A stretch of 64,000 nucleotides of DNA from Candidatus Undinarchaeales archaeon (GTDB taxonomy: Archaea; SpSt-1190; JASMDC01). Under the pieces are notes generated by a model. The model saw nothing but the letters and a program-made list of their open reading frames with translations, was not told the DNA's origin and did not search any database. The position numbers and the translations under genes were made by a program. The DNA is taken from NCBI GenBank assembly GCA_030753015.1, contig JASMDC010000007.1, forward strand, positions 1-64,000. The letters are read 5' to 3'. Of the stretch, positions 53,585-58,451 are shown piece after piece (position 1 is the stretch's first letter; every line of letters begins with the position of its first letter).

Positions 53585-53760
53585 GGTCGTGACCCCCTTG
53601 AGCAGCGAGCGCTTTCGTCCCGTCAGTTCCACCAGAAAGGACGACACTGGGGCGGTTGAAAAACACGGTGTTAGGGGTGATAGTGAGGGCGCTCACACCG
53701 CGCGAGTACCGGCACGCCGGCCTGCCGGCTTTCTTGACCCATGAGCGGCTAATCTCTACC

Positions 53761-54426
53761 ATGGCGCTTCCATGGGAGCACGGGGCCCGGCAGCCGTTCC
53801 TGGACCGGACCGATCCCTCCGATGTCCGCCGGGAGGCAGTGGCGCTTCCCCTGGCGCCCGGCCGGGTCACCGTGCTCCGACCCACCTCCTTCCCCGTGTC
53901 CCTGGCCCTGGCCAGGGCGGCGCTCGCGCCCGGGGGGGAGGTGCGGGCCGTTGTGGTCGACGGCGGTAACCGCTTCGATCCATCAGCCCTGGCGCGATGG
54001 GCACAGCACCTGGGCGCGCCGCCGCGGAGGGTGCTGGAGGCCGTGGCCGTGTCCCGGGCGTTCACCTGCCACCAGCTGGCCCGGCTCGTGACCGAAAGGC
54101 TGCCCCGGGAGCTGGCGGTCACCGGGGCGCGGCTGGTGGCGGTGCTGTCGCTGACCAGCTCGTTCACCGACGTGCCCGCACGGGAGGGCGTCGCCCTCTT
54201 CCGCCGCACCCTGGACGCCCTCGCCCGGGCGGTGCGTTACGCGAACGCCGCGTGCCTGGTCACCCTGGACCGGGAGCCCGAGGGGTACCTGGAACGACTG
54301 GCCCGGCGGCGTGCCGTGGCGTGCGCCGAACTGCTCCCGGGGCTGCGGCTCCAGCTGGAGGGAGGGCCTGCGGTGCCGCTGGGGGCGACACCCGCCCCCT
54401 TTCCCTGGGCTGTGGGTGGTGCCTGA
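53761..54426 (+). CDS. Inactivated RadA/RecA-like protein (iRadA) of the PolB2 cassette
   Basis: VDGGNRFDP, V.RAFTCHQL; no Walker A. Confidence 0.8.
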   Translation: MALPWEHGARQPFLDRTDPSDVRREAVALPLAPGRVTVLRPTSFPVSLALARAALAPGGEVRAVVVDGGNRFDPSALARWAQHLGAPPRRVLEAVAVSRAFTCHQLARLVTERLPRELAVTGARLVAVLSLTSSFTDVPAREGVALFRRTLDALARAVRYANAACLVTLDREPEGYLERLARRRAVACAELLPGLRLQLEGGPAVPLGATPAPFPWAVGGA

Positions 54427-54427
54427 C

Positions 54428-54706
54428 ATGGGCCGGACCGTGGCCACGTTCCGCCACCTGCTGGCAATCGAGGAGTCGCGCTGGCGCCCCTTCCGCGACG
54501 GGCTGCGGCGACGGGACCGGGAGGCCTTCGACCGGCTGTTCGACCTGGCCCGGGGCCACGCCGCTGCTGCCACCATGGCGGCCAGCCCGCTCGCCATGGA
54601 GCCGGTGGTGCTGGCGGTGCTCCTGGAGCACCAGAAGGCGCTCGAGCGGCTGACCGCGCGGCTGGCGGAGGTGGACGAGGGTGAGGGGGACCGGCTGGGT
54701 CCTTGA
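54428..54706 (+). CDS. PolB2-associated small protein (arCOG07300-like)
   Basis: MGRTVATFR......W.PFR..LR..DRE.FDRLF..AR.HA.A. Confidence 0.85.
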   Translation: MGRTVATFRHLLAIEESRWRPFRDGLRRRDREAFDRLFDLARGHAAAATMAASPLAMEPVVLAVLLEHQKALERLTARLAEVDEGEGDRLGP

Positions 54707-56795
54707 CATCCACGCCGACGGGGGCGAGGTCGCCCTCTGGGTGAAGCGCGAGCGGGGCGGTACCGTCCGCCTCGCAGCATCCTACCGTCCTCCCTTCTAC
54801 GTGCTCCCGCGGACGCAGTCCCTGGACCGGCTCCTTCCCCGCCTGCGCCAGCTCCCCGGGGTGGGCCGGGTGACGACGGCACGGCGCTCGGACGTGTGGA
54901 CCGGAAGTGAGGCCGCAGTGGCCGAGGTCCATCCCGCCGATCCGGCACGGATGAAGGCGACGGCGGCCCGGGTCCGCGACGACGTGGGGACGGCGGGAGA
55001 GGTGTGCACCTGCGACGTGGCGCACGAGACGCGGTTCCTCATCGAGCGGGGGCTGTTCCCCCTGGCCAGGGTGCGCTTTGCGGCCGACGACGACGGGCGG
55101 TTGCGTGACGTGGCGCTCGACGGCGACGCTGCCGATGCCATGGAGTACCCGGTGCCCCGTCTTGAGGTCGTGGAGGTGTCCCGTGGTAGGAGCGCACGGG
55201 CGGCCTGCATCGGCCGGGACCCGGACGTGGTGATCACCCGGGGACCCTGCGCCGACCTCCATCTGGTGTCCCGTGAGCCCGTGGAGGCCGTGCGACGGCG
55301 CGCGCGTTCCTACGTCTCCTACGGACGAGTGGTGTACAAGCCGCCGTTCCAGCACCTGCACGGCCGCTGGCACGTTGATGGCGACCATTCCTTCTTCGTG
55401 CGCCGGTGCGGGCTGGAGGGGCTCATCGAGCTCTCCCGGCTCTCCTGCATCACCCCCCAGCGCATGGCTCATACCTCGCCGGGCACGGCCATCAGCGCCA
55501 TGGAGGTGGCCACGGCGCTGCGGCACGGGATGCTGGTGCCCTGGCGCAAGGGCGAGCCCGAGGCGTTCAAGACCGCCTGGCAGCTGGTGCAGGCCGACCG
55601 GGGTGGCCTGGTGCTGGAGCCGGTGCCGGGCGCCGTGGAGCAGGTGGCGGAGATGGACTTCGCCTCCATGTACCCCACCATCATGGACCACCACAACATC
55701 TCGCCCGAGACCGTCCAGTGCACGTGCTGCGGGGACGACGGTAGTGCGACGGTGCCCGTGCTGGGCTACCATCTGTGCAGCAAGCGGCGCGGACTGGTGC
55801 CCGAGACCATCGCACCGCTCTTGGAGCGGCGGCGGCACTACAAGCGACGAGCGCGGGCCACGCGCGGTGCGATGCGCGTGGGGTACGAGCGGCGGCAGCA
55901 GGCGCTCAAGTGGATGCTGGTGACGTGCTTCGGGTACCTGGGCTACCGCAACGCCCGTTTCGGCCGGATCGAGGCACACGAGTCGGTGACCGCCTTCGGC
56001 CGGGACAAGCTCGTGCGCGCGGCGCGCATGGCCGAGGAGGCGGGCTTCGCGGTGGTGCACGGCATAGTGGACTGCCTGTGGCTGCGGCACGAGGATGGGG
56101 ACACCCTCGCGGGGCGGGAGGACGAGCTCGCCGACCTCATGTCGTCCATCGGCAGCGCAGTGGACGTGGAGCTGGAGCTGGAGGGGGTGTACGGGTGGCT
56201 GGCCTTCTCCCCCTCGCGCCTCCACCCCGGGGTCGCGGCGGCCAACCGCTACTTCGGCAGGTACGTCACCGGAGAGCTCAAGGTACGTGGGATCGAGTCG
56301 CGACGCAGGGACGCGCCGGGTGTGGTGCGCCGGCTCCAGGCACGTATCCTGGGCATCCTTGCTGGCTGCCCCGACCTTGCCGCGGTGCGCGACTCCCTGC
56401 CCGGTGCCGTGGAGGTGGTGCGCCTGGCCGTGGACGGGGTGCGGGCCGGTGACGTCCGGTCCGATGAGCTGGAGGTGTGCACGGTAGTGTCCCGCTCCGA
56501 CTACCGCGGCCGCTCGCCGACGGCGGTCGTGGCCACGGCACTGCGCGACGAGGGCGTCGAGCTCCTCCCCGGCCAGAAGGTGCGGTACGTGTGGGGTGCC
56601 GAGGGCCGGCCCGTGCCCGCGAGCGAGGCCGACGGGTACGCCCACGACCGGTACACTGAGCTTCTAATCAGGAGCGCGGGGACCCTTTTAGCGCCCTTCG
56701 GGCTCCCTGCCGAGGCGCTCGCCCGGCGCCTGGCCCCCGGCGGCCATCAGCTTACCCTTGCCGCGTGCGTCGCGCGCAGAAGACGGGCGCGGTGA
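54681..56795 (+). CDS. polB2: Family B DNA polymerase, PolB2 subfamily
   Basis: DFASMYP, KWMLVTCFGYLGY.NARFG.IEAHE, HGIVD in place of YGDTD, KVRGIE.RRRD; degenerate exonuclease. Confidence 0.9.
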   Translation: MRGTGWVLDIHADGGEVALWVKRERGGTVRLAASYRPPFYVLPRTQSLDRLLPRLRQLPGVGRVTTARRSDVWTGSEAAVAEVHPADPARMKATAARVRDDVGTAGEVCTCDVAHETRFLIERGLFPLARVRFAADDDGRLRDVALDGDAADAMEYPVPRLEVVEVSRGRSARAACIGRDPDVVITRGPCADLHLVSREPVEAVRRRARSYVSYGRVVYKPPFQHLHGRWHVDGDHSFFVRRCGLEGLIELSRLSCITPQRMAHTSPGTAISAMEVATALRHGMLVPWRKGEPEAFKTAWQLVQADRGGLVLEPVPGAVEQVAEMDFASMYPTIMDHHNISPETVQCTCCGDDGSATVPVLGYHLCSKRRGLVPETIAPLLERRRHYKRRARATRGAMRVGYERRQQALKWMLVTCFGYLGYRNARFGRIEAHESVTAFGRDKLVRAARMAEEAGFAVVHGIVDCLWLRHEDGDTLAGREDELADLMSSIGSAVDVELELEGVYGWLAFSPSRLHPGVAAANRYFGRYVTGELKVRGIESRRRDAPGVVRRLQARILGILAGCPDLAAVRDSLPGAVEVVRLAVDGVRAGDVRSDELEVCTVVSRSDYRGRSPTAVVATALRDEGVELLPGQKVRYVWGAEGRPVPASEADGYAHDRYTELLIRSAGTLLAPFGLPAEALARRLAPGGHQLTLAACVARRRRAR

Positions 56796-56810
56796 GCACT
56801 TGTAATGTCA

Positions 56811-57297
56811 GGCACGTATATATGCTATCCACACCATGACCCTTCTGAGGAAAATGGCAAACACGCCTCCCGGGGGGACGACAAAGGATGGGTCTCTCGT
56901 TTTTTTTCTGACCATCCTTGGCTGCCACCACCGCCCCCCGGGCCTCTTTCTCCCTTAACTTCTATCGGAAAGATGCCTTCGGAAGGTATTTATGCTATAC
57001 ACGACTAAATAGTATGGGGGGAATGATGGTCATTCTTCCCCCGGGGGACGGGATGGAAGGTTCACCTAATAATAGAATAATAGCACTTCTTAGTCTTCCT
57101 TTGGCTGCCACCTCCGCCCCCCGGCACTATTCTCCCCGTTCCTGATCCGAAAGGTAAATAGGCCATCCACACCTGATTAAGGACCGGGGGGAACGGGAAC
57201 CCAGTTCCTATGCTCTCCTGGGGGGCGGGATGGGGAAGTGCTGCCTATTTCTGTTTACGCTTTCTCGCTGCCACCCCCGCTCCCCGAACCTTCCCTG
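56811..57297 (+). ncRNA. Array of three promoter plus structured small-RNA units (~170-bp period)
   Basis: Conserved TATA-GCYATMCAC promoter, G-rich 5' hairpin, second hairpin with invariant GCTGCCACC and variable loop, pyrimidine tail. Confidence 0.6.
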
Positions 57298-57314
57298 ACC
57301 CAGAAGAACATGCA

Positions 57315-58451
57315 CTAGGCACGTTCATCGAGCAGGTCGGCGGCGGCCTCGAGGTCGAGCACGCGGTACTCGATTGTGAGGCTCTGCCAGGGGCGGAGGA
57401 CGTTGCTCGCTGCCTCGTGGCCCGAGGAAAGGAGCACCTCCTTGATCTCGTCGTTGGACAGTCCGTTGTACTGGGACTTGATGGCCGCCACGGCACCCGC
57501 CACCAGGGGTGCGGACATGGACGTGCCCGTCCATGTCGTGTAGCCGCCGGGGACCGGGGAGAGGATGTCCACGCCGGGCGCGACGATGTCGAAACCGAGG
57601 TTCGTGGAATTGTACAGGCGGTCCTTGTCCTCCCATGATGCGCCCGCGGTGAACACGTCGGGGCAGGAGCCGGGCGACGTCCTGCTGAGACCAGTCGCCG
57701 GATCGGCCGTCTCCCGGGCGTTGCCGGCGGACGCCACGAGGAACACTCCCGCGTCGTACACACGTGAGCATGCCTCGTTGATGAGGCGGTCCACTTCGGC
57801 CTTGGGCCGTCCCTCGAAGTCCTCTGCGGTCTCCATGCCGAAGGACATGTTGACTACGTCCATCCCGTCCGCCACGGCCTTGTCGAGTCCGCGCAGTGCG
57901 ACCGAGAACCCGTCATCGCCTTTGCCCGTGACGACCTTGTAGCTGTACAGCTCGGCCTCGGGCGCGATGGTGTGGACGATACCGGCGACGTGCGTGCCGT
58001 GGCCGTGGTCGTCGTACGGGTCGGGTTTGTCGTAGACGAGGTCGGTGAACCCGCGGTAGGCGTCGATGAGGTAGGGGTGGGACGCGTCGATGCCCATGTC
58101 GAGGATGCCCACCTTCACACCTTCACCGGTGAGCCCCCGGGCGTTCGCCTCGGCGGCGTGCACACGCCGGTAGCCCCAACCCTGGGCCACGTCCTGTGGT
58201 CCGACGCCAGTGGCGAGCTCGTAGGGCCGGTCGCTGTGCGTGATGGTGATCGCGCGTTCGTCACCGTAACAGGTGATGACCCCAGCTGTCCGGAGGTCGG
58301 CGAGCTCCCTGGCATCGGCATCCATAACGAGTGCGGCGTTCAGTGACGTGTACGCCTCCTCGACGGCGAGACCATGGGACGCGAGATCGTACGCGCCATG
58401 ACCCTGCTCCAAGAACACGACAGTGCGCTCGACACCTGCAAGCTCCACCAT
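57315..58451 (-). CDS. S8 subtilase (no signal peptide)
   Basis: ILDMG, HGTHVAG, SAGN, GTSMSAP. Confidence 0.92.
   Translation of the reverse strand: MVELAGVERTVVFLEQGHGAYDLASHGLAVEEAYTSLNAALVMDADARELADLRTAGVITCYGDERAITITHSDRPYELATGVGPQDVAQGWGYRRVHAAEANARGLTGEGVKVGILDMGIDASHPYLIDAYRGFTDLVYDKPDPYDDHGHGTHVAGIVHTIAPEAELYSYKVVTGKGDDGFSVALRGLDKAVADGMDVVNMSFGMETAEDFEGRPKAEVDRLINEACSRVYDAGVFLVASAGNARETADPATGLSRTSPGSCPDVFTAGASWEDKDRLYNSTNLGFDIVAPGVDILSPVPGGYTTWTGTSMSAPLVAGAVAAIKSQYNGLSNDEIKEVLLSSGHEAASNVLRPWQSLTIEYRVLDLEAAADLLDERA

Follow-up and report, generated by a model that had tools for sequence, protein, structure and literature searches.

What is encoded by the three similar units that lie in tandem in this 64,000-nt stretch of a Candidatus Undinarchaeales genome, flanked by the gene of a family-B DNA polymerase and that of a convergent subtilase? 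The array occupies positions 56811-57300 (+ strand) of the stretch, called the window in the following; coordinates are positions in the window unless a contig is named. It was analysed in the context of its own genome (G000; 3.85 Mb, 117 contigs) and of a congeneric sister genome (G001). The original prediction, made from the sequence alone, proposed a family of paralogous non-coding RNAs (ncRNAs) of about 100-110 nt with a constant scaffold and a variable payload. Judged from sequence comparison, the first part of this proposal is supported, with putative independently promoted, + strand RNAs of about 95-115 nt. The three units are probably separate genes for small structured ncRNAs, i.e. 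tandem sibling small RNAs (sRNAs) of a genus-restricted family with about seven loci per genome.

Layout of the array and its units

The spacing of 170 and 168 bp given in the original prediction was reproduced with a repeat finder, which identified a 20-nt promoter-box family at 56816, 56986 and 57154 (GTATATATGCTATCCACACC and two variants, 80-85% alike). A second family of 31 nt at 56918, 57101 and 57264 contains the invariant GCTGCCACC, with a spacing of 183 and 163. The hairpins are unequally spaced because the inner loops differ in length between the units. Mean column identity in the three-way alignment of the units was 67%. The whole region 56811-57300 forms a low-GC island (47-60% in 200-nt windows) versus flanks of 64-74%. 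A regular expression combining motif and outer stem (GCTGCCACC.CCGC.CCCCG) matched only the three array places in the 3.85-Mb genome. The same was true genome-wide for the promoter box, and a looser promoter expression agreed (strict form 3/3 here).

Each unit comprises a predicted promoter, a G-rich 5' hairpin (H1), a long hairpin (H2) directly after H1 and a pyrimidine-rich tail. The features are listed below, where fractions are positions identical in the sister genome, BRE is the B-recognition element and CM stands for covariance model.

56811..56846, + strand: predicted promoter of unit 1; BRE/TATA TATATATG from 56817, promoter-proximal box GCTATCCACAC, predicted start at about 56847; 31/36
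56847..56868, + strand: H1 of unit 1; folds, with GGC 56856-58 pairing with GCC 56865-67 and GAGG 56847-50 pairing with a CCUC; 21/22
56869..56942, + strand: H2 of unit 1; outer stem CCCGGGGGG/CCCCCCGGG, inner stem AGGAUGGG.UC/GACCAUCCU; CM match of 76.7 bits; 68/75
56943..56957, + strand: pyrimidine tail of unit 1, CCUCUUUCUCCCUU; no long T run after the hairpin, 3' end predicted; 13/16
56981..57015, + strand: predicted promoter of unit 2; GGAAGG TATTTATG CTATACAC, predicted start at about 57016; 26/35
57016..57040, + strand: H1 of unit 2; GGGGGGAAUGA / UCAUUCUUCCC; 17/25, an H1 hairpin of altered sequence being still predicted in the sister genome
57041..57124, + strand: H2 of unit 2; outer stem CCGGGGG.CGG / CCG.CCCCCGG, inner stem GGAAGG/UCUUCC; CM match of 81.5 bits; 70/85
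57125..57139, + strand: tail of unit 2, CACUAUUCUCCCCGU; 6/15
57149..57183, + strand: predicted promoter of unit 3; GAAAGG TAAATAGG CCATCCACAC, predicted start at about 57185; 26/35
57184..57219, + strand: H1 of unit 3; GGGGGG...GGGAAC CCA GUUCC...CUCUCC; 27/36, the changes retaining pairing through G-U
57220..57285, + strand: H2 of unit 3; outer stem GGGGGGCGGG/CCCGCUCCCC, inner stem GGGGAAGUG/CGCUUUCUC, GCUGCCACC at 57267-57275; 59/66
57286..57300, + strand: tail of unit 3, GAACCUUCCCUGACC; 11/15

The G-rich hairpin about 30 nt downstream of each promoter and the long hairpins at 56869-56942, 57041-57124 and 57220-57285, all part of the original prediction, were reproduced by folding. H2 follows a general plan. 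Its outer stem consists of G/C pairs (GGGGGG.CGG / CCG.CCCCCC); on the 5' side, 1-5 nucleotides without a partner lead to an inner stem specific to each unit, which is topped by a variable apical part. On the 3' side, 9-13 unpaired nucleotides carry GCUGCCACC in an asymmetric internal loop. This motif is identical in all three units, as had been claimed for the 3' side. In unit 1 it is located at 56921-56929 and the apical loop contains a run of eight T (56900-56907; seven in the sister genome). In unit 2 it is located at 57104-57112, and the long AU-rich apical part displays a 7-nt indel with respect to the sister genome.

The claim of a TATA promoter with a shared downstream motif in each unit also holds at the sequence level. 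A purine-rich BRE-like stretch precedes the TATA box (GGCAC-GTATATATG, GGAAG-GTATTTATG and GAAAG-GTAAATAGG in units 1 to 3), and the box GCYATMCAC, common to all three, follows it. H1 starts 30±1 nt after the start of the TATA box; the distance is 29-31 nt in the four loci with an H1 (units 1-3, labelled U1-U3, and a locus on contig C29 described below). The same BRE/TATA layout was found upstream of the genes for the signal recognition particle (SRP) RNA (gaaaGGTTTATAAtcgcatcc...) and the RNase P RNA of this genome. It was also found upstream of many of the 36 tRNA genes detected by ARAGORN (e.g. cgAAAGGTTTAAAAAA, gAAAAGGTTTTAAAg), at about 30-40 nt from the mature 5' end. The promoters are predictions, and their BRE/TATA orientation is the reason for assigning the units to the + strand. 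Since the common promoter-proximal box is rare in the genome, the trio is probably co-regulated. A similar box (YATMCACR) was observed right after a TATA box at G000:C24:~62387(-), C27:~5290(-), C77:~12212(+) and C39:~6612(-); promoters sharing such a box could form a small regulon with a common repressor or operator site. One poly-A metatranscriptome yielded 0 RNA contigs for the locus, a result which says nothing on expression. The locus contigs from three DNA runs were identical and revealed no population variants.

Conservation, structure and strand

The whole array is present in the sister genome at 80% identity, between the same two genes. Identical columns amounted to 197/226 in H2, 65/69 in the motif with the 3' strand of the outer stem, 83/106 in the promoters and 65/83 in H1. 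The corresponding values were 51/70 for the apical loops, 30/46 for the tails and 23/46 for the spacers between units. At third codon positions of the flanking genes, 317/400 (polymerase) and 281/377 (subtilase) were identical (75-79%). From these figures, the hairpin bodies, above all the single-stranded motif, are more conserved than synonymous sites, the spacers are not, and the apical loops change at roughly the neutral rate. In the alignment with the sister genome, the units contain several indels of 1 nt and one of 7 nt. As these are not multiples of three, no reading frame is conserved and coding potential is lacking, in agreement with the earlier statement that no peptide is conserved in any frame.

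The compensatory variation which the original prediction had seen in the outer stem proved weak. Among nine pairs in nine sequences, the closing pair (1/9) is the only one that changes on both sides. Five pairs never vary, two vary on one side (G-C/G-U) and one departs only by unpaired cells. Altogether 96.3% of the cells are paired, versus 55-74% with the partner slid. The outer stem gives little covariation because it is nearly invariant. The inner stems are more informative: they differ in sequence between paralogs and yet pair, as alignment and constrained folds both indicated in line with the prediction. When the motif was held unpaired, 11 of 13 folded sequences adopted the order outer stem, short 5' linker, inner helix and 3' loop. 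Six of the seven loci plus four orthologs fit this plan, the two 'U5' rows (see below) being excepted and the inner part of the copy on contig C26 being branched.

The effect of substitutions between orthologs on pairing was counted for five ortholog pairs (U5 included), taking the minimum free energy (MFE) structure of each genome in turn as reference and counting both directions. On the + strand, 66 MFE pairs were changed, of which 40 were kept, 19 lost and 7 gapped; on the - strand, the 61 changed pairs were divided into 22 kept, 29 lost and 10 gapped. Consensus (alifold) energies of the ortholog pairs favoured the + strand for U3 (-49.1 versus -27.4 on the - strand), U4 (-32.8 versus -25.6) and, slightly, U2 (-40.8 versus -38.5). 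With its three G-U pairs, the inner stem of unit 3 can form on the + strand only, so that the earlier claim of G-U pairs favouring this strand is confirmed for this stem. It is thus chiefly the promoters, together with this G-U-rich stem, that support the assignment to the + strand.

The wider family and its distribution

Searches with nhmmer and two covariance models (R1 and R2), followed by inspection by eye and constrained folding for divergent copies, place the trio in a family that is restricted to the genus and comprises about seven loci in each genome. Four were found with a covariance model, one of them on a small repeat contig, and two divergent ones were added by eye. One member found with the models and nhmmer is G000:C29:30067-30154 (-), whose ortholog lies at G001:C4:158029-158116. 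A TATA box of its own stands 31 nt before H1, and it has the outer stem GGGGGGCGG/CCGCCUCCC and the loop AGCUGCCAGUU (AGCUGCCACCU in G001), followed by a run of five T. It lies after a gene whose product has a C-terminus like that of 2-oxoacid:ferredoxin oxidoreductases (read by eye), and no polymerase gene is nearby. Another member, C115a (C115:144-237), lies on a 1.6-kb AT-rich contig and has 25 identical bases in common with unit 1. The members found in this way outside the array each display their own TATA box and a T-rich 3' flank.

Two divergent copies were recognised by eye and constrained folding. C115b follows the same plan with the loop CUGUCCUUA; in the copy at C26:~520-620, an outer stem of 15 bp goes with the loop GACUGCCUUGACC. 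Both are considered as probable members only, since the models gave them no score. Throughout the family the 3' strand starts with (G)CUGYC; most members carry GCUGCCACC, and the divergent ones display the variants CUGCCAG, CUGCCUU and CUGUCCU. UGCCACC occurs a second time in three members: within the H1 loop for the C29-type RNA, and in the 5' leader for both C115b and C26. The weak matches labelled U5 (C48:9266-9361 and G001:C18:85870-85965) follow a stop codon and a GGGGUCCGG/CCGGACCCC hairpin and are devoid of the family stems. Their conserved stretch holds both AUUGCCACCAA and CGCUGCCAC, and they may be regarded as a possible relative only, perhaps one located in a 3' untranslated region.

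Contig C115 (1-1636) shows a terminal overlap of 77 nt (1-77 = 1560-1636). Modules of about 50-450 nt (e.g. CGGCCTTCTAGCTCCGG..CCGCT...GGCCCTCCGCC) are common to C115, the start of C26 (C26:1-870), C53, C82 and C87. C115 and C26 represent an AT-rich, repeat-rich region with several small-RNA-like genes, which breaks the assembly. C115 and the start of C26 are joined by two metagenome contigs; C115 is not a separate organism. At G000:C76:~2399(-), a hairpin GGCAUCACG...CGUGAUGCC directly followed by CUGCCACCU was noticed downstream of a TTAATATAGG box; it marks a possible further small RNA gene in which the motif is displayed. A genome scan for a hairpin plus CTGYC returned 288 matches and was set aside, as most of them were spurious.

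The genome, metagenome and viral collections and the set of relatives are samples of each group, and absence is to be read as not found in those searched. With R1, matches were obtained in 2 of 17 genomes of the class, G000 and G001 only. With R2, 6 of 151 related genomes gave matches at E<=0.01, of which two hold true members; the four matches outside the genus were discarded by inspection as coding-like sequence with neither hairpin nor motif. The pattern of motif plus outer stem was found at eight loci in genome contigs, comprising the sister array (3 matches) and seven single matches, the latter rejected as GC-rich bacterial contigs devoid of the architecture. In metagenome contigs it was found at ten loci (two identical to C115a and eight GC-rich singles), and in viral contigs at 2 + 2 loci, none with the architecture.

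The two genomes with the family are large for their class, with 3.6-3.85 Mb (about 99% complete, 5% contamination) versus 0.6-1.2 Mb for the 15 other class genomes sampled. The available part of the description of Candidatus Undinarchaeota also reports small genomes (PMC7414124). G000 and G001 are either large-genome outliers or misplaced or chimeric bins.

Sibling small RNAs and competing explanations

The original prediction was right in setting aside tRNA, CRISPR, C/D and H/ACA RNAs, as ARAGORN, a k-mer scan, Rfam and direct reading agreed. The window gave 0 Rfam matches at the gathering threshold. At E<=10, the region 56500-57600 matched only two microRNA-precursor models (17.1 and 16.5 bits versus cut-offs of 97 and 58), and nothing relevant was obtained for the other family loci. 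ARAGORN detected 0 tRNA or tmRNA genes in the window and 0 in C115. Clustered regularly interspaced short palindromic repeats (CRISPR) consist of identical repeats of 24-40 nt at regular spacing. A k-mer scan of the 117 contigs for repeats spaced 45-110 nt revealed no such array, and units of about 170 bp that are only 67% alike are unlike CRISPR. Box C/D sRNAs carry C (RUGAUGA) and D (CUGA) end boxes in a kink-turn (K-turn), internal C'/D' boxes and 12-nt guides. Direct reading revealed no consistent boxes across the three units, and no C/D model of Rfam matched. Origin recognition box (ORB) repeats, split or permuted tRNA halves, bulge-helix-bulge (BHB) motifs, K-turns, selenocysteine insertion sequence (SECIS) elements and ribozyme cores were dropped on reading, Rfam being the only formal test. 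Nothing but cloning primers turned up when the literature was searched for the motif string.

Archaeal H/ACA sRNAs form serial hairpins in which a lower stem, rich in GC and about 9 bp long, is followed by an internal loop and an upper stem, with a handful of genes per genome, and the array resembles them in all of this. H/ACA sRNAs also display an ACA box placed just beyond the 3' strand of the lower stem, at a distance of about 14-15 nt from the pocket, a K-turn or K-loop in the upper stem and a bipartite variable guide pocket. In contrast, the lower stems of the array are followed by CCUCUU, CACUAU and AACCUU, i.e. by no ACA/ANA box in any unit. No tandem G-A pairs and no K-turn or K-loop were found, and no Rfam model matched. 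The loop has no more than 1-5 nt on its 5' side, and its 3' side, instead of serving as a guide, is invariant between paralogs.

Type III ToxI antitoxin arrays are short (about 36 nt) identical repeats with one promoter, directly upstream of the gene of the processing endoribonuclease toxin. The array is likewise made of tandem direct repeats of a structured RNA unit, but its units measure about 170 bp, are 67% alike and have a TATA box each, and its neighbours are DNA_pol_B and convergent Peptidase_S8 genes. In the paralogs of the protein-titrating sRNAs of the CsrB/RsmZ type, a hairpin scaffold presents one short single-stranded motif while the rest is free to vary, which is also seen here. 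However, each RNA of the present family contains just one or two copies of its motif, (G)CUGYC/UGCCACC, which has no relation to GGA, and a candidate binding protein was not identified; we know of no CsrA system in archaea.

The nearest known kind is represented by the tandem sibling sRNAs of bacteria (PrrF1/PrrF2, OmrA/OmrB, AbcR1/AbcR2, some csRNAs and LhrC1-5), with which the array shares organisation and no homology. Each bacterial sibling sRNA has its own promoter, and lhrC1-4 are in tandem. As in bacterial siblings, the copies of the array have near-identical common segments, here the invariant GCUGCCACC with the outer stem, and differ elsewhere, here in inner stems and loops. According to the part of PMC4211561 that was available, sibling sRNAs are encoded by at least two paralogous genes of about 80-115 nt located side by side in one intergenic region. 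LhrC displays three CU-rich single-stranded regions, the common single-stranded segment being the functional contact (PMC5880928, available in part). The array differs from the bacterial cases in its archaeal BRE/TATA promoters, in lacking an Hfq system and Rho-independent terminators, in the position of the conserved element within the asymmetric internal loop of a long hairpin, and in sequence.

As sibling sRNAs, the units would function as follows. Each gene would be transcribed from its own archaeal BRE/TATA promoter, with the start 30±1 nt after the TATA box, where H1 begins. The outer and inner stems would hold the 9-13-nt 3' strand single-stranded in the asymmetric internal loop. The invariant loop may be the recognition surface by which all siblings meet the same partner, with the stems and apical loops serving mainly for folding and stability, and the array copies would be switched together, raising dosage. 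As the partner, a protein (in a ribonucleoprotein scaffold or by titration) is slightly favoured over an RNA target common to the siblings. This preference comes from the absence of the motif complement in the stable RNAs that were checked, its lack of enrichment at gene starts and the free variation of the base beside the motif. The complement (GGUGGCAGC and 7-mers) was absent from the 16S and 23S rRNAs of the sister genome and from the SRP and RNase P RNAs of G000, and it was not enriched upstream of crude open reading frame (ORF) starts.

Several observations weigh against sibling sRNAs. Units 1 to 3 have no clear oligo-T terminator after the hairpin, and oligo-T normally terminates archaeal transcription. 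In unit 1, the eight T of the apical loop may even end transcription before the motif, giving a short RNA devoid of it; alternatively, they may be a U-rich protein site. Folding energy is only moderately unusual: the z-scores of units 1 to 3 were -2.69, -1.15 and -1.04 on the + strand, hence modest for units 2 and 3, and -2.25, -2.25 and +1.14 on the - strand. Consensus energies of two ortholog pairs favour the - strand (U1, -37.0 on + versus -42.1 on -; U5, -41.2 versus -46.9). Covariation is thin, with two genomes of one genus and an invariant stem that is silent on structure. G/C-rich hairpins are common in the genome and were counted by eye directly 3' of about 10 of the 36 tRNA genes (e.g. 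GGGAGGGG-loop-CCCCTCCC); some of the scaffold may accordingly reflect a general tendency of this genome to form such structures. These hairpins resemble H1 of the units and may be the terminator or processing hairpins of this organism. Finally, starts, ends and expression of the units are predictions, and neither a partner protein nor a target RNA was identified.

Among the alternatives, the one that survives best, unlikely as it is, treats the units as DNA-level repeats: palindromes similar to repetitive extragenic palindromes (REP) or miniature inverted-repeat transposable elements (MITE), or bidirectional terminator hairpins between convergent genes, with fortuitous TATA-like strings. The location between convergent genes would suit it, as would a near-perfect G/C palindrome as outer stem that folds on both strands, the G/C hairpins after many tRNA genes and the relatives in the repeat-rich, assembly-breaking region of C115 and C26. 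Mobile repeats of the MITE or REP type are marked by many copies, terminal inverted repeats with target-site duplications, and presence/absence polymorphism between relatives. Against such a reading, only about seven loci were found, with the array and the C29-type locus orthologous in both genomes, so that the four comparable loci all stand at orthologous positions. The promoter strings have been kept in both genomes, point in the right direction and stand at a constant 30±1 nt from H1, and G-U pairs and substitution patterns favour one strand. Moreover, the best conserved part is the single-stranded 3' loop, which neither a terminator nor an inverted repeat explains.

Guide-type RNAs, in which a constant protein-binding scaffold presents variable loops that pair with different host, virus or plasmid targets, were suggested by the inner stems and apical loops, wholly different between paralogs on a constant scaffold. 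We regard this as very unlikely. The apical loops are 51/70 identical between the species, close to the synonymous rate, and one of them carries a 7-nt indel. A search of whole units against the genome with blastn-short revealed no match of at least 14 nt inside the variable loops. The variable payload of the original prediction is thus disfavoured, because the loops drift neutrally, at the rate of third codon positions, and the genome lacks complementary sites. In addition, no CRISPR array is present in the genome, and no effector gene common to the loci was seen in their partly annotated neighbourhoods.

A role as anti-Shine-Dalgarno (anti-SD) riboregulators, which would bind GGAGGUG ribosome-binding sites through C-rich single strands (CCACCUCC, tail UUCUCCC), is just as hard to credit. 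The CACCUCC of the 16S 3' end is indeed present within the CCACCUCC of unit 2 of G000 and of the C29-type copy of G001; GGAGG/GGUG motifs occur upstream of starts in this organism, and LhrC sRNAs act in this manner (PMC5880928, available in part). However, the base that would face the A of GGAGG is free to change (A, U or C), being A throughout the G001 array, the outer stem sequesters half of the site, GGTGGCA was found in only 8 of 4499 crude upstream regions, and no convincing conserved target was found. The likeness to the 16S 3' end was judged weak.

A bolder version of the protein-partner idea is a long shot: a new archaeal RNA-protein module, with a CUGYC asymmetric loop between a G/C stem and a stem free to vary, in which the trio would act as co-regulated decoys or scaffolds and, through mimicry of the anticodon loop of tRNA-Gly(GCC), could draw off a tRNA-binding enzyme or anticodon nuclease. 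If true, this RNA-level antitoxin or regulator would be the first of its kind described in archaea. Least credible of all is a role as decoys or antitoxins, in which an imitation of an anticodon loop would sequester such an enzyme or nuclease: the motif heptamer CUGCCAC equals the anticodon loop of tRNA-Gly(GCC) of G000 (contig C22) and recurs in part as the second UGCCACC of C29, C115b and C26, but the likeness was seen post hoc, the motif lies in an internal loop and not in a 7-nt hairpin loop closed by a 5-bp stem, the divergent members (CUGCCAG, CUGCCUU, CUGUCCU) include two with a non-purine at the '37' position, and no toxin gene is adjacent to the array.

The genes around the array are given for context only.

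53656-54426: divergent RadA/Rad51-like ORF upstream of the polymerase gene; Pfam Rad51, 1.9e-5
54681..56795, + strand: family-B DNA polymerase; Pfam DNA_pol_B, 9e-26, all NCBIfam type-B polymerase models below their cut-offs
57315..58451, - strand: subtilase (Peptidase_S8); Pfam, 7.5e-43; convergent, same neighbour in the sister genome

The polymerase and the RadA-like gene fit the iRadA-PPB2-PolB2 operon described in PMC11791011, as far as the available part of that article goes; in its available main text on PolB2 operons, the terms 'non-coding', 'ncRNA' and 'small RNA' do not occur. The original prediction had called a link to iRadA-PolB2 speculation, and such a link is indeed unsupported. 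Since other members of the family lie elsewhere, at the C29 locus and in the AT-rich repeat region, the position next to PolB2 is most likely incidental. The link to this translesion-synthesis cassette is probably a positional accident, and recognising it as such prevents a false functional annotation.

The reach of the finding is limited to one genus of uncultured marine archaea, to which the family is confined. Within it, the array represents a previously undescribed, lineage-restricted family of structured RNA genes. To our knowledge, no tandem sibling sRNA genes are known outside bacteria, and a literature search in partly available sources found none. Few regulatory or scaffold sRNA families of archaea have been defined by comparative evidence. 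With three predicted promoters sharing a common box, a precise predicted start and a 9-nt invariant loop, the locus offers a compact and testable case.

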